A stretch of 64,000 nt of DNA from Raja brachyura (lineage: Eukaryota). The position numbers were made by a program, and so were the translations under genes. Below, one piece after another: positions 4,126-63,560 of the stretch (position 1 is its first letter; every line of letters begins with the position of its first letter). Below the pieces are notes generated by a model. It was not told the DNA's origin, did no database searches, and worked only from the letters and a program-made list of their open reading frames with translations. The stretch covers positions 20,708,001 through 20,772,000 of the forward strand of contig OY740785.1 in the NCBI GenBank assembly GCA_963514005.1, in the 5' to 3' direction.

Positions 4126-6359
4126 CACATTGTTGAGTCAGAGCCAGTGTTGCAGCTGCATAAGCACATGTGGTGCAGTTAGACTTGGAGCTCTGCAGTC
4201 TCACAGTTGTTCTGCCTATTAATGTTTCTTAATGTGTTGTCTGAATTATATTGGGTGAAGACTGGCTTCTGTGATGTTGGGGAGCCTACGGGTGGGAGGA
4301 GGGGGGACATTACACTGAAAACATCTGATTGAAGAGTCACGTAATGATTCTCTTTTGCCTTTGCTGTTGTCCTGTGTTCTGCAGCTGCTTTGGTGTTTCT
4401 ACTTTCCTGTGGGAAATTACTAGTACCCCTATTTCAGCATCTTTCTCTTTCACTCCATCTTCCCCCACTCGTTCCATCACCGTCTGGCCACAATACCCTC
4501 ACCATCTCTGTTGTTTGCCCCTGCCTCTTCCTTCCAGTTCTTCTGCCCCTCCCTCCTGCCCCCATCTCTTTGCTTATTTTATCATTTACCAACTAAGCTA
4601 TTGGCTGAGGTCTCATTGGTGTTTATACTGCAATAGTGTAATTTCTCTTACCATGAAAGGTTAATATTTTATCCAGCTGTTTTTATATAATGTTAGTGTT
4701 GATAATTTTTTCCTAGGTTTATTAAAAATTTAAGCTAGCAAACTGATTATTACATAATGTTTTGAGACAGTGGTCCAAGTTAATTTTGCCTGGAAGTATT
4801 TTGCTCATAAATATAACCTTTCGGGAGCCATGTTTTGGAGCTGGACCATGTGGAGAATCCAGTTGCTGTAAGTCTTAAACCTTTCATTTAGATGGTAACT
4901 GAAATCAGTCTTTTGAAAAACTGACTGAAATGGTTGTAAAAATTGTGTATCTTATAAGAGCAAATGACATTGTTTTTAAGCAGTGTCTATTTTTAGTAGG
5001 CTTCCGAGAGAAATTTTTTAATCTTTCACAGAATATGAATTGCTACTGCAGTCCTCGCACAAAGCTCTCAACATTTCATCAGTGCAAATGATAAATGTGA
5101 TGTGATACAGTTTAATGTAACGTTATGGACATCATCTCTTGTATTTTCTACTGGTCTGATTTTTAAATTGCACCGTATTTTCGAACGCCTTGCAGGAAAT
5201 GTTAGTGTGCAAATGTATACAATGCATCAAGCTCATTCGACTGCCTGAACAAGTAGATATGTAAACAGGAAGGATGCCATGCATTTGCTGCAGAAACAAA
5301 GAGCTTTGTGAGTTGCAGCTGCTAACGTTATGGTTGATTAATTCTTGGCATTACAGTGTGTGGTATTGATACGTTTGATGCGATGCATATGTTATCAATT
5401 TAAAGATTGTGTTTTAGAGTGGTCCTGAGTCATGTGCACACATATGCTGGTGGAAAAAATTAATTTGATTATGATTCTTAAAGTGGTGAGTTGTTGATCA
5501 CAGCTTGGGTGTTTGGGTGAAAGGTTTCCTCCTGAGAAACAAAAATGTAAAGGTTCGTCAGACTATAACGAAAGCGTGCGTCACTTGAGGCTGTCCGGTG
5601 TTCGTTACTTGTGTCTTGAAAGCAAGCTGACCTGGGATCATGGGAATGGGGTGTGGGGGCAGGGAAAGAATGGTGCGGTGTATCTTATCGTGCGACTTGG
5701 ACTTGTAGCTGTCTTCATAAATGCAAAAGGATTGACAGAATCCTGCTGATTAGACAAATTAATGGTGGAATTCTGCAGCACGAGAGGCAAGATTTGATTA
5801 CCCATTTTAAAATATTCGAGTGCTCCAGGCTATTCTGGATATTAACAGAATTAAAAAAGGCAATTTGATTTTTACTGAGGACAAAGCAATAGAATGATCG
5901 ATTTTTACACCTGTGAAAATGTTCGCATGCAAGTGAGAATTCAGGTCTCTACATGAACAGAATGTTAATTTTTTTTTTCAATGTAGAGAATATGCTGAAG
6001 ACCTGAAGATGGCTTCTGATAACTCTCCAGTTTGTTTTTGGGTATTTAAACTTTGTCAATATTCCATTTTCTATATCTGAACATTAATGGTAAATGTGTT
6101 CATGATTAAAAGAGTTTTTTTTTTTTATCGAAGTGTGGATAAGTACAAGATTCTTTGGATTTTAGCAGTGCAGGGAGCACACATTTCTGGAATTCGTTAA
6201 ACTTACAAACACCTTGTGGTCTGTGAAAATTAATCATGACCATGTCTGGACTGCCTAAAGCATCACATATGGGTATTCCTTTAATTGTTCTCACCGAATG
6301 GAGAGATATTGGACATAATTTTCATTAACAGTATCACCATCAAAATAATAATCATACAG

Positions 6360-6572
6360 TGTATAAGAAGGAACTACAGATACTGGTTCAAACCGAAGAT
6401 AGACACAAAAAGCTGGAGTAACTCAGCCGGACAGGCAGCATCTCTGGAGAGAAGGAATGGGGTGACTTTTCAGGATGAGACCCTTCTTCAGACGTCTCGA
6501 CCCGAATTGTCACCCATTCCTTCTCTCCAGAGATGCTGCCTGTCCCGCTGAGTTACTCCAGCTTTTTGTGCC
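6360..6572. mobile_element. Fold-back (inverted dimer) of the Penelope terminal module
   Basis: Left arm about 6404-6480 is the reverse complement of right arm about 6495-6570; flanked by TAATAATCATACAG (6346-6359) and TAATAGTCATACGG (6573-6586). Confidence 0.85.
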
Positions 6573-7510
6573 TAATAGTCATACGGCATGGAAATAGGCC
6601 CTTCAGCCTAACTTGTCCATGCCGACCAAGGTGCCCTATGTACACTCGTCACATCTGCTTGCATTTGGCCCATATCCCTCTAAACCTTTCCTATCTATGT
6701 ACCTGTCCAAATGTCTCTTAAATATTATAGTGCTTTCCTCAACGATGTCCTCTGGCAGTTCATCCCATATACCAACCACCCTCTGTGCGTTAGTGTTGCC
6801 TTTAAGGTTCCTATTACATTTTCCCCCTCTTTCCTTAAACCTATGTGTTCTGGTTATTGGTTCCCCTACTCCGGGTAAAATATTCTGTGCATTCACCCTA
6901 TCTATTCTCTTTATGATCTTATACATAAGATCACCCCTCATCCTCCTGCACTCCAAGAAATATAGTCCTAGCCTGCGCAACCTCTACCTATGGCTCAGGC
7001 CCTCAGGCCCTGGCAACAGTTGCATGTAATTCTGGTCGTCCTGCTACAGGAAAGATATGGGGGCTTTAGAGAGGGCGCAGAGGAGGTTTACCAGAATGCT
7101 GCCTGGATTAAAGGGTTTCAGTTGCAGAGAGACGTTGGATAGGCTTGAATTGTTTTCTCTGGGATGTTGGAGGTTGAGGGGAGAATTGATGGAATTTATA
7201 AAATTTATGAGAGGCATAGATACGGTAGACAGACAGAACCATTTTCCCTGGTGGAAATGTTCAACATGAGAGGGCATAGCTATGAGGGGGGAAGTTTTTT
7301 TTAATACAGAGAGAGATGGGGTCTGGAATGCATTGGCAGGGTGGTAATGGAGGCAGATACGATAGTGGCGTTTAAGATACTTTTGGGTGGGCACATGGGA
7401 GTGCAGGATGTGAATCATGTGCAGGCAGAAGAGATCAGTTTAACTTGGCATCATGTTGGCAGACATTGTGGGCCAAAGGGCCCATTCCCGTGCTATACAG
7501 TTCTATGTTA
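6573..7510. mobile_element. Two CR1 3' ends in opposite orientation (- 6573-7015, + 7015-7510)
   Basis: ORFs RLGLYFLECRRMRGDL and LERAQRRFTRMLPGL are typical CR1 ORF2 C-termini. Confidence 0.85.
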
Positions 7511-8373
7511 ACATCCTTAGAAATCTTCTCTGCACTCTTTCCAGCTCAACAACATCTTCCTAAAGCAGGGTGACCAAAATTGAACTTAATACTCTAAATA
7601 TGGCCTCACCAACATCTTGTACAACTGTAACATAACATCGCAATTTTTATACTCGATATCTTCTCCGGTAACTTCTCCGGTGAAAGGAGGAGATGCGGAC
7701 TCGTACCGCACACGTGCCGGACAGGTCAGTAGGCCACCCATTAGATACTGTGATTTTGTATAACTATACTTTCCCATATGTGTTATTAAAGTTCCGGCTA
7801 CTACATTGTTTAGCCACCATGTTTTTACATATCTATACTTTATTTTGCTTCAAGAAAAGATGTAGATTGGTTATTTCCTACTAACCAATTGTAGTGCTTG
7901 TTAGTGCTGGCTCCGCCTAAAATGCGATTGATATTACCAAGAGCTTGCCTACGCAATTCAGCCTGAGTAGCTGCTAGTTACTGTATTGTCCTGCAGACCG
8001 ATGCTGTAAGTGGACTTTAATAAACATGTGTTGTATCTTGATGTGTGTCTGACTCGACTCATTGCAACTGATGAAGGCCAATGTACCGAGAGCCCTCTTG
8101 ACCAGCCTGTCCACCTGTGATGCCACTTCACCCGTGCACGTATCTGCATTAAACTCCATTAGCTGTTCCACAGCCCACTTGCCCAACTGATCAAGATCTT
8201 ACTGCAATTTTTGGTGATCATCTTCGCAATCTACGATACCACCTGCTTTAGTGCCATCTGTAAACTTACTAACCATGCCTTCTACACTCCGATTCAAATT
8301 GTTGAAATAAACCACAAACAGCAATCAGTGCAGCACCGATCCCTGAGGCATACCACTGCTCACAATGCTCCAG

Positions 8374-8955
8374 CAGGGCTCAAAATTAGCGGTTGCCCGG
8401 GTGCCAATGACCACTCAAAGTGCCGCCGGGCAACCTAAACGCCCAGTCACTTTGCCCGGCTTCACACGCAAATACTGGTTTATACCGATAGACAGAAAAA
8501 AACTGGAGTAACTCCGCGGATCAGGCAGCATCTCTGGCGAATAGGAACGTGACATTTCGTGTCGGGGGCGGCTCTATTGGGGGGCAAAGATACTAGGAGC
8601 AGGGTGACGAAGGGTCGGAGCGAATGACGGGCTCCGAACAGCGGTAGCAGCGGCCACGACAGCGGCTCCCTCCCTCCCTCCTCCCGACCTCGGCGTGCAA
8701 GAGGGGTTGTTTTGAAAGCGCCATTGGTGGATTTGCAAGCTTGCAAATCCGTTAATTGCACTTTCAAAACAACCCCTATCGCACGCCGAGGCACGGGGAG
8801 AGGGAGAGTGCCACCTGAAGCAGCTGCACCAACGACCCCGCACCTTCCTGTCGGCTGGCGGAGGAGGGGAAGCGGTGGCGATGAGATCTTTGGCGGCGGC
8901 ACTTTGGCGTTGGACAGGGATGGCCAAGGCAGCAGGACGATGTTATCCGAGGAGC
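8374..8955 (+). mobile_element. Left part of a non-autonomous DNA transposon (CAGGGCTC end family)
   Basis: Starts CAGGGCTCAAAATTAGCGGTTGCCCGGG; colinear with the reverse complement of 28650-29219; same end type as 20835. Confidence 0.75.
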
Positions 8956-22417: not shown

Positions 22418-22925
22418 GAGCACCCGGAGAAACCCCGAGCAATCAAAGGGAAAAGGAGCAAACTCCCTGCAGACAGCACCCATATTCAGGATCAATTCCG
22501 GGCCTCTGGCAATTTTAGGCAGCAACTTTATGGCCAATGCACTGACCTGTAGGGTTGAACTGAATGAAAACATACAGTAGCTGTAAAGGGGGACATAGCA
22601 TCACTTAGAGATTTAAGACTGAAAATGGATAGTTTCTTTTTTTTTTTAGTAACCAAAGTTATCAACGTATAATTTTTATGTGTGTTGGAAAATAAAATAT
22701 AGTGGCACAGCTGGTGGACTTGCTGCTCACACGCCAGGGATCTGTGTTTGATCCTGTTCTCGGGCACTGTCTGTGTTGAATTAGACATTCTCCCTGCAAG
22801 CATGTGGGTTTCCTCCCACATCCCAAAGATGCATTGGCTTTGTAGGTTAACTTGTCTCTGTAAAATTGCCCCTAATGTGTAGTGAGTGGGTGAGGAAAGT
22901 GGGATAACAGAACTAGTGTGAATGG
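22418..22925. mobile_element. Two tRNA-derived V-SINE/HE1-like copies (- 22418-22545, + 22702-22925)
   Basis: tRNA-like head GTGGCACAGCTGGT...TTTGATCC and core GGTTTCCTCCCACATCCCAAAGA. Confidence 0.7.
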
Positions 22926-22929
22926 GGAG

Positions 22930-24045
22930 CCAAAAATGCTGGAGAAATTCAGCGGGTGAGGCAGAAAATAGGCGATGTTTTGGGTCGAGACCCTTCTTCA
23001 AACTGATGTGAGGGTGCAGGGGGTGGGAAGAAGAAAGGAAGAGGCAGAGACAGTGGGCTGAGGGAGAGCTGGGAAGCGGAAGTGAAAGCAGGGACTACCT
23101 GAAATTGGGGGTCAATTTTCATACAGCTGGGGTGTAAACTGCCCAAGCAAAATATGAGGTGCTGCTCCTCCAATATGTGGTGGGCCTCTCTCTGGCCATG
23201 GAGGAGGCCCAGGACAGAAAAGTTGAATTCGGAATGGGAGGGGGAGTTGAAGTGCTGAGCCACCAGGAGATCAGGTTGGTTATTGCGAACCGAGCGGAGA
23301 TATTGGGCAAAGCGATCGCCAAGCCCATGCTTGGTCTCACCGATGTAGAGCAGCTGACACCTAGTGCAGCGGATGCAATAGATGAGGTTGGAGGAGGTGG
23401 ACGTGAACCTCTGCCACACCTGGAAAGAAGACTTGGGTCCTTGAATGGAGTGAAGGGGGGAGGTAAAATGACAAATGTAGCACTTCCTGCGGTTGCAAGG
23501 GAAAGTGTCAGGAGAGGGGGTGGTTTGGGTGGGAAGGGACGAATTGACCAGGGAGTTACAGAAGGAGCGGTCTCTGCGGAAAGCCGACTGGAGAAGATCG
23601 GAAGATGTGGCCAGTGGTGGGATCCCGTTGGTAGACAAAGCTGGAGAAAATCAGCAGGTGAGGCAACATCTATGGAGCGAAGGAATGGGCAACGTTTCGG
23701 GTTATCATTCAGACCGATGTCGGGGGGGGGGGGGGGGTCGGGAAAAAGAAAGCAAAAGGCGGAGACAGTAGGCTGTGGGAGAGCTGGGAATGGATGGGGA
23801 AGAAGGGAGAAAGCAAGGACTACCTGAAATTGGAGATATCAATGTTCATAGCGCTGGGGTGTAAACTACCCAAGCAAAATATGAGGTGCTGTTCCTCCAA
23901 TTTGCGGTGGAGGAGGCCCAGGACAGAAAGGTCGGATTTGGAATGGGAGGGTGAGTTGAAGTGCTGAGCCACCGGGAGATCAGGTTGGTTATTGCGAACT
24001 GAGTGTAGGTGTTGTGCAAAGTGATCTCACTTGGTCTCACTGAGG
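22930..24045 (-). mobile_element. Penelope-like retroelement, partial tandem with GIY-YIG endonuclease
   Basis: ORF 22949-23638 contains CxxxxCxxC, NLIYCIRC...LYIGET, VAQHFN and EEQHLI; terminal region repeated in direct orientation at 23630-24045. Confidence 0.9.
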
Positions 24046-24537
24046 TTGATCATAGGCTGAATAATCCAACCAGATTTTTGTTTGGAAGTGGAAAGAACTA
24101 ATAGAAATTGCAGTCATTGCAACGTGTAAAAGGAAATGAGATCCAGTATTATCATTTTGCTGCATGTCATTGTGGTATATATCATGTCTTGATTGGTGAA
24201 TAAGTTTAGCTAGTGACTTTATTTGAAACAGAAATAATGTGAATGCTTCATGGACCTTAATTCTGACTAGTAACTACACACTTCGTCCGAACCAATTATC
24301 GCGCATGTCATGCAAGCCGTCTTAAATGACCACCTAAACTGTCATTTGGCAACCTAAAAAGCTGCCGAGGTTGCCCGGCTGGCAACAGGGAAATAAAGTT
24401 ATGCGAGAGCCCTGCATTATAGGAAGGATGTGGAGGCTTTGGAGAGGGTGCAGAGGACGTTTATCAGAATGCAGCCTGGATTAGAGGGTTTCAGCTACAG
24501 GGAGAGGTTGGATCGACGGGTTGTTTGCTCTGGAGCA

Positions 24538-25143
24538 CAGAAAAATAGGTGCAGGAGTTGGCCATTTGGCCCTTTGAGCCAGCACCATTCAATATGATCA
24601 TGGCTGATCATCTAAAATCAGTACTCCGTTCCTGCTTTTTCCCCAATATCCCTCGATTCATTAGTCCCAAGAGCTAAATCTAACTCCCTCTTGAAAACAT
24701 CCAGTGAATTGGCCTCCACTGCCTTCTGTGGCAAAGAATTCCTCAGATTCACAACTTTCTGAAAAAGTTTCTCGTCATCTCAGTTTTAAATGGCTTACCC
24801 GATGTTCGTAAACTGTGACGCCTGGTTCTGGACTCCCCCAACATCGGGAACATTTTTCCTGCAATCCTGTCCAATCCTTTAAGAATGTTATATGTTTCTT
24901 TAAGATCTCTTCTCATCCTTCTAAATTCCAGTGAATACAAACCCAGTCTTTCATCATAGGTCAGTCCTGCCATCCCGGGAATTAACCTGGTGAACCTACA
25001 CTACATTCCCTCAATAGCACCAATGTCCTTCCTCAAATTTGGAGACCAAACTTGCACACAATACTCCAGGTGCGGTCTCACCAGGGCCCTGTACATCTGC
25101 TGTAGGACCTCCTTGCTCCTAAACTCAAATCCTCTCGCAATGA
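24538..25143 (-). mobile_element. Young CR1 3' end nested in the opposite orientation
   Basis: [25 protein letters not shown]; same subfamily as 27031-27490. Confidence 0.85.
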
Positions 25144-26439
25144 GCTGGGAAATGGCTCCAAACTTTGGAGGTTGTAGGGAAACTTGATGGAAGTATATAA
25201 AATTGAGAGGCGTAGATAGGGTAGACAGTAGACCTTTATCCCAGGGTGGAAATGTCCAACACTGAAGGGTTAGCTATAAGGAGAGACGAGGAAGGTTTAA
25301 TGGAGATGGGCGGGGTTTTTTTTACACAGTGGTGGGGACCTGGAACACATTGCCAGGGCTGGTGGTGAAGGCAGATACAATAGTGGCTTTTAAGAGGCTT
25401 TTGGTTAGGCAGAGGAAATAGAAGGATATGAATCATGTACAGGCAGATGTTATCACTTTAACTAGGCATCATGTTTGGCGCAGACATTGTGGGTGAAGGG
25501 CCCGTTCCTGTGTGGTACTGTTCTATGACCCTGCAAGTCTGGAGCTCGGTAATGGGATAAGGTAGGGTGGAGGCATTTCAGATGGCCTACACTTCGCCAA
25601 ATGGTCTCCTTGGCTGTTATTCTTTGTGTGCTGATAATCTGAATAACACTTTTGCTGGCATTATCCAGAGAGAGAGCACATTGGCCATAATTTTTTTTTT
25701 TTGATTCTTAGCTCTTGCCAATTGTTAACCAGTTGTAGCTTTTTTAACACTGTTTAATAATTTTACACAGAATGAGTTAAACTTGGTTTGTGTTATCTCT
25801 GCATGGATTACCAAATTGTCTTGGGCACTGGGAAGTAAGTGCAGGATTTTAATTGTCAGTTTCTATTGCATGTGCTTCAGGGACTGATTTGTTCATTGTT
25901 AATTTTGGTTGAGGGGGTGAACAAGTGAGCTATAAATACATTGCCTAATGAGTCATTGTAAGAATTAAAGCTCGTTACAGATACTGTTTTCCTTGTGTCC
26001 TGTGGAAATTTGGCTTCTGTGGTGAAGCCCTCCCCGTAATCCAAATTGTGACCTTCAGCACAAACTATTTTGCTACTAATGGCGACAGTGAATACCAAAC
26101 TAATGTCTCATGACTCTAATGAAAGTTATAAATCAGGTTTAAAATAAATAATATTGGTCATTTTACAAATCATCTTTTAAAATTTTAATTGCAACTCCTG
26201 ATAACTCTTTACCCCCTCATTTTAAATGTTTACTGAACGTATCATCCCTGAGCCCTCATTTTCTTTCTCCCTCTTGAATAAAGCATCTCCAAAAAATATA
26301 TTGACGAGATGTGTGGAGGGCCTGTTTCTTTGCTGTGTGACTCTAACTGTAAACTATTTGTCCTGTTTGCCGTGCTGATCACTGGAAAGAGATTCCTTCT
26401 AAATTGTTCAGGTGTCTGCCTTTGCTCTGGACTTAGTCA

Positions 26440-27580
26440 TTTTTATTTTAGTTTATTGTCACGTACCAAGGAACAGTGAAAAAAATATTTGTTGCTTGCT
26501 ATCCAGTCAGCAGAAAGACTACACATGATTACAATCAAGCCGTACACAGTTTACAGATATGGGATAAAGGAAATAATATTTAGTGCAAGGTAAAGTTCAA
26601 TTAAAGATAGTCCGAGATTCTCCAATGAGGTAAATTGCAGGTCAGGCCCGCTGTCTTGTTGTTGGAATGGTTCTGTTTTCTGATAACAGCTGGGAAGAAA
26701 CTATCCCTGAATCTGGAGGCAAGAGTTTTCACACTTCTGTACCTCTTGCCTGATGAGAAAGGAGAGGAGTGACTGGGGTGAGACTCATCCTTGATCATGC
26801 TGGGGCAGCGTGAAGTGTATATGGAGTCAATGGAAGGGAGGTTGGTTTGTATGATGGTCTGGGCTGCATCCATAATTCTCTGCAATTTCTTGCGGTCTTG
26901 GTTTGAGCTGTTCCCAAACCATGCTGTGATGCATCCCAATGAAATGCTTTCTGTGGCACATCTGTAGAAGTTGGTGAGAGTTGTTGGGAACATGCTGAGC
27001 TTCCTAAGCTGTCTAAGGATGTAGAGTAGAGGGATGTCAGGACTTTCATATGAAGAAAGACTGGATAGACTCGGCTTGTACTCACTAGAATTTAGAAGAT
27101 TGAGGGGGGATCTTATAGAAACTTACAAAATTCTTAAGGGGTTGGACAGGCTAGATGCAGGAAGATGTTCCCGATGTTGGGGAAGTCCAGAATAAGGGGT
27201 CACAGTTTAAGGATAAGGGGGAATTCTTTTGGGACTGAGATGAGAAAAACATTTTTCACACGGAGTGGTGAATCTCTGGAATTCTCTGCCACAGAAGGTA
27301 GTTGAGGCCAGTTCATTGGCTATATTTAAGAGGGAGTTAGATGTGGCCCTTGTGGCTAAGGGGATCAGGGGGTATGGAGAGAAGGCAGGTGTGGGATGCT
27401 GAGTTGGATGATCAGCCATGATCATATTGAATGGCGGTGCAGGCTCGAAGGGCCGAATGGCCTACTCCTGCACCTATTTTCTATGTTTCTAGAGACATTT
27501 GTGTGCTTTCTTGTCCATTGCTTCGACATGGTTGGTCTAAAACAGGTTGCTAGTGATGTTTACTCCTGGGAACCTATTAT
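26440..27580 (-). mobile_element. Rex1/Babar LINE 3' part interrupted by a CR1 insertion
   Basis: LTNFYRCATESI...ITAWFGN...RFRDSFFPAVIR. Confidence 0.85.
27031..27490 (+). mobile_element. Young 5'-truncated CR1 with probable TAGAG TSD
   Basis: Well-preserved CR1 3' end ending CCTATTTTCTATGTTTC; TAGAG on both flanks. Confidence 0.85.
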
Positions 27581-28041
27581 CTACATAATATTGGGTGATT
27601 AGAACTCTGTACAATTGCATGCGATTTAGGACGTGCAATTATGATTCAGCCACTGCGCATTTGGCAGGTTTTTCTAGCTATTCAGTTAATTGTACTCCCT
27701 TATTTGTAAGTTCTGCACATTTCTTCTAAATTAATACGTCTTTTTTTAGAACGCTTTCGCTGAATCTGCTTCCACTACTCGTATTACCTTTGTTTTAGTT
27801 TCTCCTGCGACACAGAAGGAGTCCATTTAGCCCATTGCAGCCTCCCGGCATAGCAGACTAATCTGACCCATTTCCCAGCTCTTGTCTGCAACCCTACAAT
27901 GTACTCCCGCATGCACTCTCGTCTGTTTTAAAATGAGTTCTAAGTTCTAACTGTCTTAGTTCTAAACAGTGACTCCCTAGTTCAACACAAAAGTGCTGGA
28001 GAAACTCAGCGGGTGAGGCAGCATCTAGGGAACGAAGGAAA

Positions 28042-28078
28042 TGGGCAACGTTTCGGGTCGAGACCCTTCTTCAGACTG
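28042..28078 (-). ncRNA. Putative minimal type I hammerhead ribozyme within a Penelope terminal module (27983-28078)
   Basis: Minus strand reads AGU CUGAAGA A GGGU-CUCG-ACCC GAAA CG UU GCC: catalytic boxes intact, stem II perfect, NUH triplet present; stems I and III minimal. Confidence 0.65.
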
Positions 28079-28089
28079 TTCCCCCCATT

Positions 28090-28640
28090 CTTCTTAAATG
28101 GGAGGATCAGTACAGGATGGATGGGAGGAGGAGATCAGCACAGGATGAATGGGGGGGGGGGGGGGGGTCAGTACAGTGGAACGGAGGGTCTGTGCAGGAT
28201 GTATGGGGGATCACTACAGAATGAATGAGACTATTACAGAATGAATGAGGGGAAGGGGGGAAGGTGCAGGGTAAATGGAGGGTGGGTCAGTACGGGATGA
28301 ATGCATGGATTAGTACAGGATGGATGGGGGAATCAGTACAGGATGGATGGAGGAGAAGTGCAGGATGGATGGTAAAGGGTGAATTGGGGAACCAGTGTAG
28401 GAGGGGTGGGGGGGGGGGGGTGAGTGGCGGCAGGAAAATCAATGCGAGGTGGATAGGGTGATCAGCGCATGGATGAATAGATAGGGGGGGAGATGGGGAG
28501 GGGAGCACAGGGGATGTCAGTGAGGACTGAATAGAGGGGATCAGTACGGGATGGTGAGGAGGAGTCCCAGGATAAGGGGGTGGAGGGGGCGTACAAGAGA
28601 ATGAGAGAGAGAAAGAGAGGGAGGGGGGAGGTGTGGAGGA
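28090..28640. repeat. Purine-rich degenerate minisatellite (CAGTACAGGATGGATGG-like) with G runs
   Basis: Repeated CAGTACAGGA/CAGGATGGATGG motifs. Confidence 0.7.
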
Positions 28641-28649
28641 AGGAAGGTC

Positions 28650-29219
28650 AGCGCTCTTCGGACAACATCGCTGCCTTGGACGTTGGGAAATCCTCGCCTC
28701 CCTCCTCCACCAGCCAACAGCAAGCTGCGGCGCCGAGCGGTGCAGCTCAGAGATCCTATAGCTATAAGATCTTTGGTGCAGCTGCTTCAGACGAGTCGGA
28801 GCGAATGACGGGCTTCGCATAGCGGCCGCAGCGACAGCGGCTCTGTCTCCTCCTCCTCCCGGCCTCCCTCCTCCCGGCCTCGTTTGTTTTGGGTTTGTTT
28901 TGAAAGCGGGGTGCGGGAGGAGATGGAGCCGCTGTCGCGGCCGCTGCTGCCGGTGTGCAGGGCCCGTCATTCTCTCCGACCCTTCCTCACCCCGCATCTA
29001 GTATCTTTGTTCCGCACAGCCATTGCCGACACGAAACGTCGTGTTCCGTTTCTCCAGGGATGCTGTCTGACCCGCGGAGTTACTCCAGTTTTTTGTGTCT
29101 ATCTTCGGTACAAACCAGTATCTGGTTGCCAAGCCGGGCAAAATGACTCGGTGTTTAGGTTGCCCGGCGGCACTTTGAGTGGTCATTGTCACCCGGGCAA
29201 CCACTAATTTCGAGCCCTG
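28650..29219 (-). mobile_element. Second copy of the CAGGGCTC-end transposon left arm
   Basis: Ends AATTTCGAGCCCTG at 29219; reverse complement is colinear with 8374-8950. Confidence 0.8.
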
Positions 29220-30799
29220 CAATTAATAATGTGGTTCGTGGGCAATTAGGGATGTACAGTTTATGCTAACCTGCTTGGTGATGTGGATATCTTGTGAATG
29301 ACGAATGTTTCCTTTGTGAAAGAAATCACCTATCTCTTCATGGAAATGGGTGATTTAACTGGAACTGTTAATCATGTTGGCATCTGTGCTCTCGAGCCTG
29401 CTCCTTTCTCCCTTGTCAACATAAACTCAATGCATCTGCCTATTTATTTATTTTCCCTAAAATTAATCCATATGATTAATTTGTAACCACATTATTACAA
29501 CTCTGTAATAAAGTGTCTTCCAAATTTATTGTTGGATTTCATGGTGACCAACTTAAAATGATGGGCTGTAGCTTTGCTCTCCAAGTGCAAAACATTCTGT
29601 GCCGACTGGCAATTTTAATGAACTCCATCAGGCCATTTCCCCCCCCCCCCCCCCCCCCCACCCACCCCATAAGAATGGGGTAGGGAGGGAATATATTGCC
29701 TTATTTAATAAGAACTTTGCTAGGACGCAGCAAGCACTTAGGATTCTAATAGCATTCGTTTGGGATTCTTAGGAATAAAATATGTATTCATTTGGAAAGA
29801 ATTAGGACGTGATTAGGAATAGTGGGCATGGTATGTGCACGGGAGATTATGACTCAGGAATTTGAGTTTTTTGACGTTGATGACGTAGGGCTGTAAACAT
29901 AGTCCCTCTCCATGGACATCAGCAAAACCATTGATAGGTTCCACATGGTAGGCTGCTCTGAAATCCCGCATTGGGATTTGGGGAGAACCAGCTAACTGAA
30001 TACAGAATTAGTTTAATGGTAAGAAGCAGAGGCCTCTGACAAATGATGGAATCAATGCTGGGCCCATTATTATTTTGGAACATTTGGGATACATTTTGGA
30101 ACTGTTTGGGTTACAAGTCACTGTCACTGGTCTCACAGTTTTCCCATGTTTTATTTGATCTACCACGCATTCGGCTTGGCATTATCTCTCAAAATCTTTG
30201 AGGGAGACATTATTTTCACTGATTCAGGAATGATGGGTGCAGGGTATGGTTCTATAATTGTAGCCATTTTTATAAGGAGCCACTTCAGGTAGCATTTTAT
30301 GGCCAAAATACAGTGAAGGTTTAGAAATACCTACCCGGCATGTCATTTGCTGTGTGGTCAGTTATTACATCCATGAAACAATGTTACGAGTTAAGTTAAC
30401 TGGAAGTAAAAGGGTGTATGGGACAAAGGTAACAATGATATTAGACATATAATATGTTGAGGCAGTCATCGTCAGGAGTAAATTGTAGCCTATGATTCCT
30501 GTGGAAGTCAAGTTTTTTAGAAACACTTGACAAAAATGAATGTGTCCATTTGGTAAGAAGTAGAAAGTGATCCATAATCTGATCTGTGGGATGAAGATGG
30601 TTTGATTGGCCTAATCTTGCTATTTCCTTGTGTTCTTCATGGTGAGCCACCTTCTTAAAAACTGAAGCACTGTTAGATAGGAAGTTCCAAGATCATTACT
30701 TGGAAAGCAATGAAATGGACCAGAAAAAAAAAATATTGTTTTATTAATTTATTCATGGGTTGTGGACATGGCTAGAAATTCCTGTATTGCTATTGGTTC

Positions 30800-31675
30800 A
30801 TTCAAGTCAACTTAATTTGTCACATACACATACAAGATGTGCAGTGAAATGAAGGTGGCAATGCCTGCGGATTGTGCAAAAACTACAGAACAGAATAGAA
30901 CAGAATCAGTATTTACATGTTGGAAAATATATTTATTTTAAAACACAACACAACAGTAAATTAGTACAGTAACTTAGTCCCTGGTGAGATAAGAGTTTAC
31001 AGTCCTGATGGCCGGTGGGAAGAAACTCCGTCTCATCCTCTCTGTTTTCACAGCATGACAGCAGAGGCGTTTGCCTGACCGTAGCAGCTGGAACAGTCCG
31101 TTGCTGGGGTGGTAGGGGTCCCCCATAATGTTGCTGGCTCTGGATCTGCTCCTCCTGGTGTATAGGTCCTGCAAGGGGGGGGGGGCGAGTGTAGTTCCCA
31201 TAGTGCGTTCGGCCGAACACACTACTCTCTGCAGAGCCTTCCTGTCCTGGGCAGAGCTGTTCCCAAACCAGATTGTGATGTTGCCGGACAAGATGCTTTC
31301 TACAGCCCCAGAGTAGAAGCACGGAAGGATCCTCGGAGAGATTCTGAATTTCCTCAGCTGTCTGACATAGTAAAGGCACTGCCTTGCCTTACTCACCAGT
31401 GCGGCAGCGTGTGTTGTCCATGTCAGATCCTCTGTGATGTGGACTCCCAAGTAATTAAAGCTGCTCACCCTACCCACAGTAGTCCCATTTATCTCCAGTG
31501 ACGTGTACGTGCTCGATTGTTGCGCCCTTCTAATATCCACAATCAGCTCCTCAGTTTTTGTGACATTCAAGAGGAGGCTGTTATCCTGACAGCTGAGTGC
31601 CAGATCAGCCACCTCCTCCCGGTAGGCCTTCTCATTGTTATTGGAGATCAGGCCCTCCGCCACAGTGTCATCAGC
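30800..31675 (-). mobile_element. Rex1/Babar LINE 3' part (RT C-terminus)
   Basis: ORF 30974-31786: ADDTV, LNVTKTEELIVD, YLGVHITEDLTW, SFFPPAIR. Confidence 0.9.
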
Positions 31676-31859
31676 GTTATTGTTGTCACGTGTACCAGCA
31701 TACAGTGAAAAACTTTTGTTTTGTGTCCTATCCAGACAAATCATCCCACATACGAGGACAATCAAACCATAAAACAGGTTGAGCAAAGACAGAGAGTGCA
31801 GAATATTGTATTACAGCTACAGATCAAATTAAGATTTTTTTTAAAGTACCAGGGCTGCA

Positions 31860-32714: not shown

Positions 32715-34765
32715 AAAAAGTCAAGAGTTTATTGTCATGTGTCCCTGACAGGAAAATGAAAACTTTCTTTGCATAGCACAACAGAACATAGAAGGCATTG
32801 ACTACAATTCTATACATAAATACACCCATGACTTAATAAATTAATAAAGTGCAAATAACAGATGGAGGGATATTAATGTTCAGAGTTCCGAGCCAGGTTT
32901 AATAGCCTGATGGCTGTGGGGAAGTAGCTATTCCTAAACCGGGTTGTTGCAGTCTTCAGGCTCCTGTACCTTCTACCCGAAGGTAGCTGGGAGATGAGTG
33001 TGTGGCTAGGGTGGTGTGGGTCCTTGATGATGCTGCCAGCCTTTTTGAGGCAGCGACTGTGATAAATCCCCTCGATGGAAGGAAGGTCAGAGCCGATGAT
33101 GGACTGGGCAGTGTTTACTACTTTTTGGAGTCTTTTCCTCTCCAGGGCGCTCAAGTTGCCGAACCAAGCCACGATGCAACCAGTCAGCAAGCTCTCTACT
33201 GTACACCTGTAGAAGTTAGAGTCCTCCTTGACAGACCAACTCTCCGTAATCTTCTCAGGAAGTATGAGAAGATTATAGCACTATGACCGGCTATTCAGTC
33301 ATGAGTATAGAGTGAGTACAGCAGGGGGCTGAGCACGCAGCCCTGAGGTGCTCCCGTGCTGATTGTTATCGAGTCTGACACATTTCCACCAATACGAACA
33401 GACTGTGGTCTGTGGATGAGGAAGTCGAGGATCCAATTGTAGAGGGATGCGCAAAGACCCAGTTCTGCGAGTTTGGTAACCAGCTTGGAGGGGATGATTG
33501 TGTTAAATGCCGAGCTGTTGTCAATAAATAGCAGCCTGACATATGAGTTTTTGTTGTCCAAGTGTTCCAGAGCTGAGTGGAGGGCCAGCGAGATCGCGTC
33601 CACCGTTGATCTGTTGTGGCGGTAAGCGAACTGCAGTGGGTCCAGGTTTTTGTCGAGGTAGGAGTTGATTTGCGCCATGATCAACCTCTCGAAGCACTTC
33701 ATCACCACATGCGTTAGTGCCACAGGTCGATAGTCATTGAGGCACGTCACCTTGCTCGTCTTGGGCACCGGTATTATTGATGCCCTTTTGAAGCAGGTGG
33801 GAACCTCAGACCTCAGAAGTGACAGGTTGAAAATGTCCGCAAAAACTCCAGCCGGTTGGTCCGCACAGGTTTTTAGGCCACGACCAGGTATGCCATCAGG
33901 TCCAGACGCTTTTCGAGGGTTCACCCCTCTGAAGGATTTCCTGACGTCGGCCTCTGTGACTGAGACTGAAATACCATCACAGCGAATAGGGGCTCGGGAA
34001 GGCACATCGGTGTTCTCCCTATCAAAGCGTGCGTAAAATGCATTGAGCTCATCAGGGAGTGATGTATCGCCGACATCCGAGCTGCCTCCTGGTTTCGCCT
34101 TGTAAGAGGTGATTGCATTCAGTCCCCGCCACAGCTGCCGAACATCTGTCTCATCCTCCAGCTTGGAGTAGAACTCCCTTTTGGCCTTTTTGATGGCCTT
34201 ACCAAGGTCGTATCTGGACTTCTTGTAGACCACTGTGTCATCAGACATGAATGCCCGGTGTCTGGTCTTCAGAAGAGTGCGGATCTCACAGTTCATCCAA
34301 GGTTTCTGATTGGGAAACACTCGGAAGGTTTTTGTAGGGATGCAGTCCTCCACACATTTCTTTATGAAGTCTGTAACGACTGTGGCGTATTCATTCAAGT
34401 CCGTTGCCGAGTCCTTGAACATAGCCCAGTCTACAGACTCCAAACAGTCTTGTAGTTGTTCTTCTGCCCCCGCCGACCAGCTCTGTACTGTCCTCACCTC
34501 TGGGGGTGCGCTCTTTAATTGCTGCCTGTAGGCAGAAAGAAGCAGCACCGCGGTATGGTCGGATTTACCGAAGTGGGGGCGAGGGATAGAGCGGTAGGCA
34601 TCCTTAATGGTGGTGTAGCAGTGGTCGAGGATGTTTGGTCCTCTAGTGCAGCAGGAGACATGTTGGTGGAAGTTGGAGTGATTTCTTTAGGTTTGCCTTA
34701 TTGAAGTCCCCAGCAATGGTGGTAAATGCCTCGGGGTAAGACGTCTGGTGTTTGTTGACCACCAA
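32715..34765 (-). mobile_element. Young Rex1/Babar LINE, 5'-truncated, internally deleted, nested in an old CR1-like LINE
   Basis: APE end (GDFNKANL, LDHCYT, SDH), RT ORF, 3' tail ending AATAAACTCTTGACT; old LINE sequence flanks both sides (32365-32712, 34800-35200). Confidence 0.92.
33295..34548 (-). pseudogene. Rex1/Babar reverse transcriptase ORF fragment (417 aa), lacking the FADD motif
   Basis: KASGPDGI, NDYRPVALT, LDPLQFAYR, SAFNTI, GAPQGCVLSPLLYSLYTHD then a stop and a deletion. Confidence 0.9.
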
Positions 34766-36881: not shown

Positions 36882-37307
36882 GAAGGGGGGGAGGTCTTAT
36901 GGGAATCGGAGAGGTATATTGAACAGTACAGCACAAGAATGAGCCCCAATGTCTCTGCTGACTGCAATGCCAACTTAAAATGCACACCCGCCTTCATGTG
37001 GCCTATATATGTCAATTCCCCCGGAAGGGGGGGAGGTCTTATGGGAATCGGAGAGGTATATTGAACAGTACAGCACAAGAATGAGCCCCAATGTCTCTGC
37101 TGACTGCAATGCCAACTTAAAATGCACACCCGCCTTCATGTGGCCTATATATGTCAATTCCCCCGGAAGGGGGGGAGGTCTTATGGGAATCGGAGAGGTA
37201 TATTGAACAGTACAGCACAAGAATGAGCCCCAATGTCTCTGCTGACTGCAATGCCAACTTAAAATGCACACCCGCCTTCATGTGGCCTATATATGTCAAT
37301 TCCCCCG
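36882..37307. repeat. Exact tandem triplication, 142-bp unit
   Basis: Units start at 36882, 37024 and 37166 and appear identical. Confidence 0.95.
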
Positions 37308-46004: not shown

Positions 46005-46490
46005 ACAACTGCTCTACATCGGTGAGACCAAGCGCAGGCTTGGCGATCACTTTGCCCAACACCTCCACACAGTTCGCATTAACCAACATGATCTCCCGGT
46101 GGCTCAGCACTTCAATTCACCCTCCCATTGCGAATCTGACCTTTCTCTCCTGGGCCTCCTCCATGCCCAGAGTGAGTCCCACCACAAATTGGAGGAGCAG
46201 CACCTCATATTTCGCTTGGGTAGTTTACACTCTAGCGGTATGAACATCGACTTCTCCAATTGCAGGTACTCCTTGCTTTCTTCCTCCTTTCCCAGCTCTC
46301 CCACAGCCTACTGTCACTGCCTCTTCCTTTCTTCTTCACGCCCCCCCACCCCCACATCAGTCTGAAGAAGGGTCACCACCCGAATCGTCACCTATTCCAT
46401 CGCTCCATAGATGCTGCCTCGCCCGCTGAGTTTCTCCAGCATTTTTGTCTACCTTCAATTTTTCCAACATCTGCAGATTCTTGTTAAACA
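46005..46490 (+). mobile_element. Penelope-like element 3' end (GIY-YIG C-terminus, pyrimidine tract, hammerhead-like motif, tail)
   Basis: LLYIGETKRRLGD, AQHFNSPSH, KLEEQHLIFRLG; CTGAAGAAGGGTCACCACCCGAATCGTC at 46362-46389. Confidence 0.9.
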
Positions 46491-55580: not shown

Positions 55581-57011
55581 CCTTTGCGTTGTAAATTTAG
55601 TGAGGTTGTACATTTGTTCAAAAATAAAAATAAAGTGTATGTTAAGTTTAAGAATATGCAACCAGCCAAAGCCTTTGAGGAATTATAGAGCAAGTTGGAA
55701 AGAGCTCAAATAGGTGATTAGAAGGGCCAAACGGGCCATGCAATGTCAATGGTGAGTGATTAAAGAAAACCCCAGGTTTTTTCCATGCTGCTTCCTTGAT
55801 TGATGTAGCAGAGAGGCGTCAGAATAGATGTGGCCACAAAAAAGGCAGGTGTAGCTGGGGCAGGAGCCTGAGGACTGTTGACTCCAGGTGCAAGAATATC
55901 TTCTTCCCACCAACCACCAGGTTCTTGAATTTTCCTTAATGACAATAATCACAACCCGACCTCACCACTGAACCACAATGGACTTTGTACCAATTGTGTT
56001 GCTCTTTGTACTTTGGGTTTGTACCATCTCTTATTTGCATGGAATAACTTATAATTTATAATGTTTATGTTTGTAGTTGTTGCATCTAACGTGCCTGTGA
56101 AGCTGCAGCAAGAAAGAATGTCATTGTTCTGATGCACGATATCCTTGTTTGACAGCAAGGATAAATTCTGCCATGCGCACAAGTGTGAGTAGAATAGAAC
56201 TGGTTGGATCTGTAAAAACAAGAAACTGCAGATGCTAGATTACAAAAAAAAGACCCGGGCACACTGGAGTAACTCAACATCCCTGGAAGAACTGGACAGG
56301 TGACGTTTTGGGACGGGACCCTTCTTCGGACCTCTGGGTGGATCTCTTGTTCTAGAGAAGAGCGAAGGGCCTTTAGATCTTCCTGACGAGGAATAGAGGT
56401 GTATAGAGTTTGGAAACCCATGATGATGTTGAAGCCGTTGGGACCAAGGAATAAGAAATTATGAAAAAGGTGGAGGGCATGAGAGGTGTATCAGATGTAG
56501 GTGGGAAATATCTGGGCAGTGGTGGTGTGTGTGGGTGCAGGATAGAGTCAAATTACTTGGAATAGTTGGACTGATGGTGAGACTTTAATAAATGCCCAAG
56601 GACTAGTGTATTTCTAGATACAATAGAATGTTGCCACCAGATAAATAGGCAGACATCCGCAATACTTAATTTATGCCTTGGGATCCAGGGGGTGTAAAAA
56701 TGTTGATAAATCATGTAAACTAAAGGATGTATGGAACAGAAGGATTCTGGGTGCATATGAGCATAAGCTTTCAAAACTGGCAGGGCAGGATGATAATGGT
56801 TAGTGATGGGTATGAGATCCTGGGTTTATTAGGAGTGATTTTAAAGTACAGAAGGAGAGGTTGTGTTGAACCTGTACAAAACATTGGTTGGGCCTTATAT
56901 GGAGCAACAATAGACTGTTGGAGTACCTGGACTGACAACATTGGGATTGCGATCCTCCTTGCAAGATGTTGTCTATCCATTTCCCTCCATAGGTGATGCC
57001 TGACTTATTGA

Positions 57012-57199
57012 AGGTAGACAAGGAAATAGGCAACGTTTCGAGCCAAATCCCTTCAGATCCGAAAAACGTTGCCTATTTCCTTCGCTCCATAGATGCTGCT
57101 GCACCCGCCGAGTTTCTCCAGCTTTCTCCGAGTTTCTCCAGCTTCTCCAGTTTCGTCTACCTTCGATTTTCCAGCATCTGCAGTTCCTTCTTAAACGCT
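57012..57199. mobile_element. Fold-back Penelope-terminal mini-element with 11-bp TSD
   Basis: TGACTTATTGA at 57001-57011 and 57200-57210; AAGGAAATAGGCAACGTTT and AAACGTTGCCTATTTCCTT are inverted. Confidence 0.85.
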
Positions 57200-58249
57200 T
57201 GACTTATTGAGTTCTTCCATCAGTTTTTGTTTTTTACACAAGATTTTAGCATCTGGGGTGGCGCTTGTCTCCATGCCCCAATTATAGTTTCTGCCTAATT
57301 TTGTTCATTATGGTTTCAGAAGGATGTAAAGGTCTGAGAGAAAGTGCAGAGTATGCTGATTAGAATCGTTTCACTGTATGGTAGGATGATTCTCTTTGGT
57401 GTAAAGACATTTGAGAATCAATCTGATAGAGGGGGAGGAGTGGCGTTCCTACATAATGGTCCATATTGCGATTTTCCTTAACATGTGCACATTGTTATTT
57501 GTGTTAAGGAATGGGAGTTAAAAATAAAGCCTTTTTTTGGTAGTGGTGTGATTTCCGTAAGAGTAAATTTCTGTTAACCGAACTGCTGTAATGAGTAGAA
57601 TGCAAGTGTGCAGACTTTTTACTCAAGATCTAGAAATTACTACTAATTAAGAATGGCAGAAATTAGTTAATTAGTAGTATCACAAAGGATTTGGCTTGGT
57701 ATTGCAGTGGGAATAATTTAAGGGCTTGAGAAAAGAGCAGTGAAACCGACAGAGAGGATGCAGTGGTAGCAGTTGGCATGGACAGTGGGCATTCTGTGCA
57801 GGAACAGGTCTGATTATTTACCCAATCTCACAGAGTAGTTTGCTCTTCCCTGCTGCTCAGCTGCCTCAAAGAGGCTGCAGAACATGGTGGCTAATGCAAG
57901 GTTGTACTTACAAAGTGTATAGTCGTACAGTGGTGTCCATGTCAACCAAGGTGCTTTCCTGAGGTACTTCCCATTGTCTGCATTAGGCCTATTTCCTTTT
58001 AGACCTATCCTTTCCATGTGCCTGAACAAATGTATTTTAAACGTTGTAATTGTACCGGCCTCTCCAGCTTTGGCAGTCACCTCGTTTCATATACTCACCA
58101 TCCTCTGTTGAAAAATTGCCATTCAGGTCCGCTTTACAATTTCCCCCTCGCAACTAAAACCCATGCCGTCTAATTTGAGATTCTCATTCTCTGGGAAAAG
58201 ACTGACCATCCACCTTATAAATGCCCCTCATGATTTAATCAACTTCTAT

Positions 58250-59131: not shown

Positions 59132-59266
59132 ATAGACGCAAAATGCTGGAGTAACTCAGTGGGACAGGCAGCATCTCTGGAGAGAAGGAATGGCCCCGCT
59201 TAGTTATCCTAGCATTTTGTGTCTATCTTCGGTTTAAACCAGCATCTGCAGTTCCTTCCTACACGT
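59132..59266. mobile_element. Fold-back Penelope-terminal mini-element with 11-bp TSD
   Basis: GCAACTTGGCA at 59121-59131 and 59270-59280; ATAGACGCAAAATGCT and AGCATTTTGTGTCTAT are inverted. Confidence 0.85.
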
Positions 59267-60200: not shown

Positions 60201-60419
60201 TGTGTAGGAAGGAACTGGAGATGCTGGCTTACACCGGAGATAGACACAAATTGCTGGAGTAACTCAGCGGACCAGGCAGCATCTCTGGAGAGAAGGAATG
60301 AGTGATGTTTTGGATGGAGACACATCTTCAGACTGAAGGGTCTCAACCGAAACGTCACCCATTCCTTCTCTCCAGAGATGCTGCCTGTCCTGCTGAGTTA
60401 CTCCAGCATTTTGTATCTA
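60201..60419. mobile_element. Fold-back Penelope-terminal mini-element
   Basis: About 90-bp inverted arms pivoting at CTTCAGACTGAAG (60327-60339); possible degenerate TSD GACCTGTAGGATA / GACCAGGAGGATA. Confidence 0.85.
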
Positions 60420-60929
60420 GACCAGGAGGATACATACTAGACCCCCTCCCCTATTCATGAGTATTGGTGTTCTGGCAGACAGTGTCTTGTGAAAACCTGC
60501 CTTGTTGTCATGGACTGCTTCAGACGTGGCAGATGAAACTGGGCATGCACCAGGCATAACTGTATTCTGAAAAAGATAACTCTTATTTTCACAATTGCTG
60601 GCTGAGTAACATTCATGCCTTACTCGTGGAATGGGGAACTTGTAAAAGAGGAGTGACATTGTAATGTTAATGATTGATTTCATTGCCGTTGCAATGAGAG
60701 TAAGTCCAAGAAGGTTCTTCAATTATGCCTTTATGGAGGGACCAGAGAAACACAAACAGTGGTCATTTTACTGCAAGGTGAATTTTAGGCCTATTTAAAA
60801 TAAGCAAGAGTTACAGGAGCAGTTATGTACACAAATCACAGAGATGTGACAAAAGGTCACAGGCCTCGGGCACTTCAGTTGTACTGACATTAGTTTGGAA
60901 TGTCCCACCTGCCTGCTTTTGACTTATAA

Positions 60930-62154: not shown

Positions 62155-63560
62155 TCCATCCTGGAAAGTTTCCAATCAGGTTTCAGGGCCCACCACAGCA
62201 CAGAGTTTGCCTTGTCGAAGGTAAACAATGACTTGCTTCTCGCCATCGTCTCCGGTGACTGCAATCCTGCTCCTTCTCAACCTCAGCGCAGTGATTGATG
62301 CAGTGGACCATACCATCCTAATTGACCGTCTCCAGTATGGGGTTGGTGTTGATGGCTGGTTCGTTTCCTACCTAAAAAACAGGAGTTTCTCTACCAACAT
62401 AGGCAATTCTTTCGCTTCCCCAGCTAGCTTTTTCTGCGGGGGTTCCACAAGGCTCCATCCTAGGCCCCATTCTCTTGTCTCTCTACATGCTCTCCCTAGG
62501 CCAAGTCATCCAAAGGCATGGCATTTCTTCCCACTGCTATGCAGATGATACACAGCTCGATCTCCCCCTGAAACCCAACAATCTGTCTAATTTAAACGGC
62601 CTCATGCACTGCCTTGATGATTTAAAATGCTGGATGGCTCAGAACTTCCTCCAACTTAACGAGAGCAAGTCTGAGGTCATTCTACTCGGCCCCTCCGACC
62701 CCATCAAAACGATAATAGGCAGCCTTGGAAGCCTAACCTCCTTAGTCAAACCGCACATCAAAAACCTTGGCGTGATATTTGACTCCGCATCAAGCAAGTC
62801 AACTCTGTGGTAAAAGCTGGTTTCTTCCAGCTTCGTACAATAGCTAAAATCAAATAATTCCTCAAATTCGACCTTGAAAAAAAATCATCCACGCATTCAT
62901 CTTTTCCGCCTTGACTACTGCAACTCCCTATACACTGGCATCAGCCAATCGTCCCTGTTCCGTCTGCAATTAGTCCAAAATGCCGCAGCAAGACTTCTGA
63001 CCACATCACCCCGATGCTGGCCTCTCTCCACTGGCTCCCAGTACGGTATAGAATCAACTTCAAGCTCCTCTAATTTGTTTACAAAGCCCTTAACAGGCTT
63101 GCCCCCCCCCCCCCCCATATCAAAAATCTTCCAACTAATCATTCTACCACCAGGTCTCTCAGGTCGGCTGACTTGGGCCAGGTCTCTCAGGTCGGCTGAC
63201 TTGGGCCAGGTCTCTCAGGTCGGCTGACTTGGGCCAGGTCTCTCAGGTCGGCTGACTTGGGGCTATTGACTATCCCGTGGTCTAGGTTTAAGCTCGGGGG
63301 CGGTTGCAGCACCTAAACTGTGGAATAGTATCCCGCTCCTCATCAGAGCTGCCCCCACCATCGACTCCTTTAAGTCATGACCCAAACCTATTTCTACTGC
63401 CAAGCGTTTTTGAGCCCCTCTGATGGGGCGCTGTAAACAGTTTATGTATGTATTGTTAGGTCTGTCTACTGTTGTATGTACCAAATTAGTACCTGCACTG
63501 ATGTGAAGCACTTTTGGTCAACGTGAGTTGTTTTTAAACATGCAAATAAATAAATTTGTT
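62155..63560 (+). mobile_element. L2-clade LINE 3' half, frameshifted
   Basis: [58 protein letters not shown]; (AAAT)n tail. Confidence 0.9.
63150..63261. repeat. Minisatellite, 4 x 28 bp, inside L2
   Basis: CCAGGTCTCTCAGGTCGGCTGACTTGGG repeated 4 times exactly. Confidence 0.95.

Follow-up and report, generated by a model that had tools for sequence, protein, structure and literature searches.

A short head-to-head insert in Raja brachyura is very probably a Penelope stub formed at insertion

Introduction

At one locus of Raja brachyura, a short palindromic insert built from pieces of a Penelope terminal module is bracketed by direct repeats and lies within an older copy of the same module. 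Is such an insert a mobile element in its own right, copied as a unit from a fold-back RNA, or is it the trace of one insertion of a larger element? The initial annotation, made from the letters of the DNA, proposed the former, a non-autonomous retroposon associated with a ribozyme. In the published descriptions of EN+ Penelope insertions that were available, an inverted truncated copy lies beside the pLTR, a tail is found on one end, and a duplication surrounds the whole (PMC3846280; PMC8557442; PMC2377424; PMC8969392). The formation of these inverted ends is described as unresolved in the text available from PMC8557442. Here, the locus is analyzed in its window, a stretch of 64,000 nucleotides of contig OY740785.1 (positions 20,708,001 to 20,772,000), and compared with contigs from sequencing runs of four relatives.

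Results

Structure of the insert and its duplication

The direct repeats TGACTTATTGA are located at 57001-57011 and 57200-57210 and are absent elsewhere in the 64-kb window on both strands. The flank match at the insert scores 12, a score equalled or exceeded by 0.03% of ~20,000 random 30-mer pairs. The 188 bp between the repeats (57012-57199) consist of module sequence in two pieces, inverted at 57012-57058 and forward at 57059-57196/99, as first described. The perfect 11-bp target-site duplication of the initial annotation was also recovered, but it stretches to 14 bp with one mismatch (left copy 56998-57011, +; right copy 57197-57210, +, where 57200-57210 is perfect and the mismatch lies in 57197-57199). 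Because ~14 bp seems typical in the family and the long 3' end of the module falls right before 57197, the duplication was probably 14 bp with one later change, and the insert would then be 185 bp rather than 188 bp in length. The ATT cut preference of the anole enzyme is compatible with this site; by eye, no consistent motif was visible in the other four duplications.

The inverted arm (57012-57058, -) reaches from the short 3' end of the family to the 5' edge of a decayed hammerhead-type motif. Internally it lacks ~46 bp at 57019/57020, and this deletion junction is common to relatives B and D. The last 2-5 bases of the left duplication equal the element end, giving junction microhomology, and 57007-57021 is identical at 15/15 positions to the copy at 46445-46459. 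The head-to-head turning point lies at 57058/57059, where 1-3 nt of microhomology, partly mutated, may have been present. The forward arm up to the short 3' end (57059-57163, +) starts at about model position 22-24, without the CUGANGA core; it contains a slippage array (57111-57154) and matches the copy at 39497-39436 at 58/62 bases. A 33-bp tail between the two 3' ends of the family follows on this arm only (57164-57196, +). The arms form a perfect 19-bp stem (57020-57038 / 57064-57082), being identical at 19/19 positions in the overlap; the overlap comprises no fewer than 19 bp and, in addition, the tip. Poly(A) is absent from the insert. The 5' part of the hammerhead is present on the left arm and missing from the right, while the tail is present on the right arm and missing from the left. 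Each arm thus carries sequence missing from the other, and neither is therefore a plain copy of the other. A stable hairpin is predicted for the insert (z -4.15), but the same holds for any inverted repeat and is uninformative on an RNA stage.

The insert splits an older copy of the module

The 5' part of an older, diverged module copy ends in the left duplication (56962-57011, +; model positions 23-71 by nhmmer), and its 3' part follows the right one (57211-57256, +), with weak similarity that may reach ~57270. When the flanks were rejoined, they aligned to model positions 23-117 with 23.7 bits, using a profile from 13 other window copies. Alone, the left half scored 11.0 bits and the right half gave no match; the best of 300 shuffles reached 3.8 bits. 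Since the rejoined flanks outscore both halves and the shuffles, the insert does split an older copy of its own module, as the initial annotation had held. The duplicated 11-mer departs from the module consensus identically on both sides, and its duplication appears to postdate the decay of the older copy. Targeting of the element's own older copies was considered and rejected: with the module making up 4.5% of the window, one nested insertion among five duplication-bearing ones is expected with a chance of about 1 in 5. A solo module (266-395, -) with a 14-17 bp duplication lies just downstream of an ORF (409-783, -) whose end resembles an older GIY-YIG tail and which has no Pfam match at E 0.01. 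Here too, an older Penelope copy may have received a nested insertion.

Empty and filled sites in relatives

Of 22 sequencing runs from eight organisms, four were used, one each from the relatives B (X3), D (X10), F (X18) and H (X20), and their contigs were aligned to 56500-57800. The site is empty in two of the four (F and H) and filled in the other two; such empty orthologous sites had been named in the initial annotation as a check, and their absence as grounds against it. In relative H, a contig of single-copy depth joins 56500-57000 (letters 581-1088) to 57200-57772 (letters 1089-1658), an exact skip of 199 bp with one target copy remaining. In relative F, one contig spans 56500-57011 and 57223-57800 with 16 letters between them, and is likewise empty. 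Contigs of B and D enter the insert from the left flank, to 57054 and 57044, respectively, and from the right flank, starting at 57172 and 57173, so that both outer junctions are present. The turning point itself was crossed by none of the contig pieces listed for the relatives. Divergence of the flanks from the window amounts to 2.1% (B), 4.2% (D), 4.6% (F) and 5.3% (H), and F and H oppose the window, B and D at no fewer than nine variant sites (nine among the 40 listed of 96).

There was hence a single gain of 199 bp, the insert plus one target copy, on the branch to Raja brachyura, B and D, and the claim that the structure moved in as one event is borne out. The deletion in the left arm is at least as old as the split from D. 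The direction of change points to insertion and not loss, because the empty state restores the uninterrupted older module; the tree itself is unrooted. The insert can serve as a clean presence/absence marker, present in Raja brachyura, B and D and absent in F and H. A joint of 57011 to 57169, seen in D and H, was considered as an empty site and rejected, having only 21 letters on its short side and letters like those of the old module in between. It is read as a putative paralogue of the older subfamily.

The module derives from an endonuclease-bearing Penelope element

On sequence grounds, the module is assigned as the hammerhead-type end (pLTR) of a Neptune-like, endonuclease-bearing Penelope element. 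A copy of the same subfamily (22925-23630, -) is still joined to a C-terminal GIY-YIG endonuclease remnant with a CX4CxxC linker and two Cys inside the GIY-YIG core, and it identifies the parent family. A second copy of this subfamily (46006-46490, +), situated at an endonuclease 3' end and carrying the tail, was used as a ruler. The insert falls in the same subfamily as these endonuclease-attached copies. The GIY-YIG remnants before the module in the two copies matched Pfam with E 0.001-0.002, short of the curated cut-off. Among 510 candidates, 11 proteins were longer relatives; four were rescanned, and RVT_1 and GIY-YIG both matched in three of them. No RT of the module's family was found within the 64-kb window. 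In a comparison of related proteins for an ORF start within the module, the N-termini of four cartilaginous-fish and partial relatives begin inside the RT, and the related protein P0008 is distant. The CX4CxxC motif was found in 23095-23620 and in P0008. In the text available from PMC8557442, a CX2-5CxxC linker upstream of the C-terminal GIY-YIG domain is characteristic of Neptune and Nematis, and Penelope/Poseidon lack it. The label Neptune-like is used here instead of Neptune because the linker, by which the class is assigned, is shared with Nematis. The region 22925-24026 (-) is a partial tandem, in which a first copy, truncated on its 5' side and terminating at the short 3' site, abuts a second copy starting inside the ORF.

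The module carries a minimal hammerhead-type motif; cleavage is putative, at the level of the motif. With a pattern descriptor taken from the accessible text of PMC4209133, one exact match to CUGANGA/stem II/GAAAC-GUY was found in the window (28047-28074) and none in 100 shuffles, and the family consensus built from the relatives' contigs also contains the motif. Rfam gave no hammerhead match at the module or the locus; in the window it gave three weak miRNA-type matches, all away from the locus and all below gathering scores. Folds of hammerhead monomers from six sequences were not significant (z -0.4 to 1.2). In the insert the cores are broken, the left arm having lost three bases and having a broken stem II, and the right arm being without a core. 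Moreover, both arms run upstream of the presumed cut at the GUY site, and neither begins there. The insert is therefore no retrozyme processed by its ribozyme.

Two 3' ends and a preferred 5' edge

The window holds 31 profile matches to the module, covering 4.5%. The 3' ends of the 28 non-focal matches fall at model positions 131-134 (12 matches), at 87-98 (10) and elsewhere (6); the family has two 3' ends ~35 nt apart. The left arm of the insert starts at the short end and the right arm at the long one, 33 bp apart. The insert consists only of two head-to-head pieces of the terminal module, one from each 3' end. The contigs of the relatives reflect both ends: 398-492 per run depart behind 57122, and the consensus turns heterogeneous near the short end, while 376-602 per run depart behind 57196 into A/T-rich sequence. 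Contigs aligned to the module number 24,097-30,870 per run, which is not a copy number; the counts of loose ends rest on 24 of 804 rows and those of recurrent junctions on 12 of 170. The stretch between the two 3' ends is the 30-40 bp 'tail' of Penelope elements.

On the 5' side, 17 window matches reach model position 9 or below, a count biased by the fact that the model itself begins there. Upstream of these 17, two share the upstream UTR clearly and one weakly, two have an inverted module, and 12 have nothing in common. Among the relatives' contigs, 551-591 per run extend before 57064, and the consensus holds only to the same point. Many copies begin just upstream of the hammerhead core and not at its cut. 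This preferred edge may be where the RNA has its 5' end, the cDNA running off the 5' pLTR, or where synthesis stalls. Solo copies starting a few bases upstream of the core are seen, for example, at 28076 (-), 56331 (-) and 3742 (+).

Fold-backs with the same layout differ in their inner junctions

Three further long fold-back stubs, all of a sister subfamily, are present in the window at 6359-6574 (-), 59132-59264 (+) and 60201-60421 (-). Each has a flank match of 14-15 bp (P = 0.0025, 0.0002 and 0.0025, respectively; 0.0002-0.0025 across all four long fold-backs), the match of the last one starting 5 nt beyond the end set for the element. In all four, an inverted short-end arm is paired with a tailed forward arm. 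Their turning points are four different ones in two subfamilies. The arm reaching further 5' is the inverted one in the focal insert and in 59132, and the forward one in 6360 and 60201. A perfect 8-bp palindrome is found at the turning point of the first stub, at 6494. Altogether, a significant flank match was obtained for five of 12 elements tested, with element boundaries set by eye. The duplications in these five decayed cases measure 14, 14, 15, 14 and 14-17 bp, the last being that of the solo copy 266-395, and a duplication of ~14 bp seems typical of the family. No significant duplication was found at the short candidate fold-backs 53095 and 21800, or at five of six solo copies tested.

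The turning point or the deletion of the focal insert is shared by none of the other three long fold-backs in the window, and both of its inner-junction words occur once there. The deletion junction in the left arm is crossed from unique flank by contigs of single-copy depth (5.94 in D, to 57044; 7.6 in B, to 57054). Paralogous junctions of 57051-57054 to 57020-57022, near the edge of hammerhead stem II, were seen in X3, X10, X18 and X20. One stem-edge junction has a depth of 518 versus a single-copy depth of 35.5 in X20, and recurrence is ~3-15x single-copy among the junctions listed. These were not counted as turning points, since they could be strand changes, go-backs or tandem duplications.

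Discussion

A very probable stub made at insertion

These results are best explained by a single event in which a Neptune-like, endonuclease-bearing Penelope element inserted with extreme 5' truncation. We hold it to be very probable that the insert is a Penelope-made stub that formed anew at this site. It is a dead by-product without sign of function.

As to the route, priming of reverse transcription at both nicks, with two short cDNAs joined head to head, is the favored account, though by no means a secure one. The element protein would cut both strands ~14 nt apart. Reverse transcription primed by the bottom-strand 3' end would begin at the distal start site and yield the tailed arm, and the top-strand 3' end would prime at the proximal site, aided by the 2-5 matching bases. 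Both cDNAs would stop after ~100 nt, near the 5' edge of an uncut hammerhead, and their ends would be joined by repair. The loss of 46 bp in the left arm may have occurred during or soon after insertion. No pre-formed hairpin RNA would be involved: the template would be an ordinary RNA of the element, perhaps a tandem transcript whose 5' pLTR was copied out to the end. The geometry of all four fold-backs is accommodated by two independent cDNAs, as either arm may then reach further 5'. The limits of this account are that no intermediate was seen and that it draws on only four old insertions.

The route agrees with results in vitro for PAc, the Poseidon of Anolis carolinensis, which is not Neptune-like. 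In the portions of PMC11167929 available, PAc cuts and extends both strands, uses uncut RNA, and starts reverse transcription at two adjacent internal sites which define the tail. The focal family resembles PAc in having two adjacent 3' start sites that define a tail, here deduced from genomic 3' ends, and presumably also in the use of both strands and of a template not cut by the hammerhead; unlike PAc, it has the Neptune/Nematis CX2-5CxxC linker. No connection between two-strand priming and inverted pLTRs was found in the available text of PMC11167929, and the literature search, as far as its sources were accessible, found none tying two-strand priming to the inverted Penelope end. The link drawn here is one that we infer by analogy.

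Self-priming as a possible source of the inversion

A less likely account, though the strongest of the competitors, keeps the same Penelope stub and derives the inversion from self-priming, in which a short palindrome would let an antisense RNA or the first cDNA fold back and serve as its own primer and template. For rotifer Penelope elements, head-to-head structures have been proposed to arise by self-priming on antisense templates (PMC3846280, as far as available), and the palindrome at 6494 would suit a fold-back of this kind. With an antisense template, the geometry is as expected at the focal insert and at 59132, where the inverted arm reaches further 5', but 6360 and 60201 misfit unless later deletions are added; the cDNA version fails in the same way at the focal insert and 59132. 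Self-priming alone also leaves unexplained why a short-site arm is paired with a long-site arm in 4/4 cases. Deletions at the palindrome centre after insertion could have removed the arm part needed by a single fold-back, so the geometry may be blurred, and our preference for priming at both nicks over self-priming is therefore kept at the graded level given.

Because these genomes hold very many minimal products, tabulating their arm ends, turning points and duplication lengths could discriminate between priming at two nicks and self-priming without new bench work. The single locus is of little weight, being one dead stub among ~30 module pieces in 64 kb.

An improbable fold-back RNA copied as a unit

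The initial annotation proposed a distinct short, non-coding fold-back RNA that is mobile as a unit. In such a scheme, a non-autonomous master locus would yield a short fold-back RNA copied by Penelope proteins, and its family would have fixed inner junctions. We regard this as improbable. The insert did arrive as one unit, its hairpin is stable (though any inverted repeat would fold), some stem-edge junctions recur above single-copy depth as given above, and non-autonomous PLE derivatives exist (PMC8557442; bioRxiv 10.64898/2026.07.22.740005, both as far as available). Against it, the four long fold-backs turn at four points in two subfamilies, none of the other three repeats the focal turning point or deletion, and the junction words are single in the window. 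Exact siblings would be expected to break contigs at the deletion junction, which single-copy contigs instead cross. In addition, members of the subfamily are joined to endonuclease coding sequence, and neither arm has an intact hammerhead core. The distinct non-autonomous RNA is thus probably wrong, and the inversion more likely arose in the course of insertion.

There is a slim chance that some stubs nevertheless became templates, in which case hairpin RNA with Penelope start sites, made by read-through from host promoters, would be re-inserted with fixed inner junctions, and the focal locus would have been copied from such a master or be its sibling. If true, this would be a palindromic, SINE-like partner of Penelope elements, without description in the literature searched.

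Two separate events and a MITE as very unlikely readings

It is very unlikely that the module inserted twice at one spot, or that inverted module DNA was added later by rearrangement or break repair. The coverage of 4.5% makes nesting common, and the left arm is internally deleted. However, one duplication brackets both arms, the empty allele has neither arm, and B and D hold both outer junctions. The arms are identical at 19/19 positions in their overlap, and the layout recurs four times; this reading is largely excluded.

A DNA transposon (MITE) with inverted repeats derived by chance from Penelope sequence has next to no chance. Such an element would be short, non-coding and palindromic and would suit the narrow range (14-17 bp) of the five significant flank matches, although these are too decayed for a fixed length to be claimed. 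It is refuted at the focal locus by termini that do not match, the left tip pairing not with the right terminus but with 57155-57167, ~30 bp further in. In addition, the ends coincide with the two Penelope 3' sites and the inner structure varies between copies; the earlier view that the insert only looks like a MITE was correct. In repeat annotation, such stubs should be filed as Penelope products and not as MITEs.

Comparison with known systems

The stub formed at insertion is the shortest form of the known pattern of 'inverted pLTR + tail + TSD' and not a new self-copying element. As in the canonical EN+ PLE insertions of the papers cited in the Introduction, to the extent of the text available, there is a head-to-head, inverted, 5'-truncated copy, a tail of 30-40 bp on one end only (here 33 bp), a variable target duplication, a hammerhead-type motif in the terminal repeat and frequent nesting in other elements. 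Unlike those described there, the insert is without any coding sequence at 185-188 bp, its host is a cartilaginous fish, and the duplication in the focal family is ~14 bp versus 8-10 bp in the rotifer examples (PMC3846280). The literature search found no report of such stubs in cartilaginous fishes among the sources as available.

Dispersed minimal hammerheads occur as thousands of single motifs per genome and are attributed to truncated PLEs in the accessible text of PMC4209133, which also mentions opposite-strand pairs 100-700 bp apart. Unlike those pairs, as they are described there, the focal pair is closer, bracketed by a duplication and dated by an empty site, and its cores are broken. 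Metazoan non-LTR retrozymes are described in the available part of bioRxiv 10.64898/2026.07.22.740005 as head-to-tail tandems in which every unit retains an intact type I hammerhead. The insert resembles them in being non-coding, derived from a PLE pLTR and related to the hammerhead, but it is head-to-head, has no intact core, and its ends would be RT start sites instead of ribozyme cuts.

A comparison can also be drawn with twin priming. In L1 twin priming, a second nick primes a second cDNA, the junction shows microhomology, and the whole structure lies within one duplication; its two arms derive from separate, non-overlapping stretches of one RNA, with poly(A) at the end. In contrast, the arms of the insert overlap and lack poly(A), and both have their start no more than ~35 nt from the 3' end.

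Other repeats in the window

A 318-bp repeat pair (8373-8686, +; 28907-29220, -), 83% alike, lies in a GC-rich element starting with CAGGG, and both repeats hold a piece of the module that breaks off identically, at model position 117-118. The end of this element is one that we take to be hAT-like. The repeat may be a DNA transposon carrying the Penelope module as cargo; if true, the module would here genuinely travel as a component of a unit. Next to this composite repeat lies a 134-bp palindrome (8674-8806; 84%) with a miRNA-type Rfam score of 31.9 bits against a cut-off of 73. LINE-type remnants are located at 33295-34686 (-), 30974-31810 (-) and 62403-62813 (+), two of which match RVT_1 and one ALKBH8_N. 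Two perfect tandem arrays, 100% identical, were found at 36882-37307 (142 bp x 3) and 63150-63261 (28 bp x 4), and are either very young duplications or assembly artefacts.
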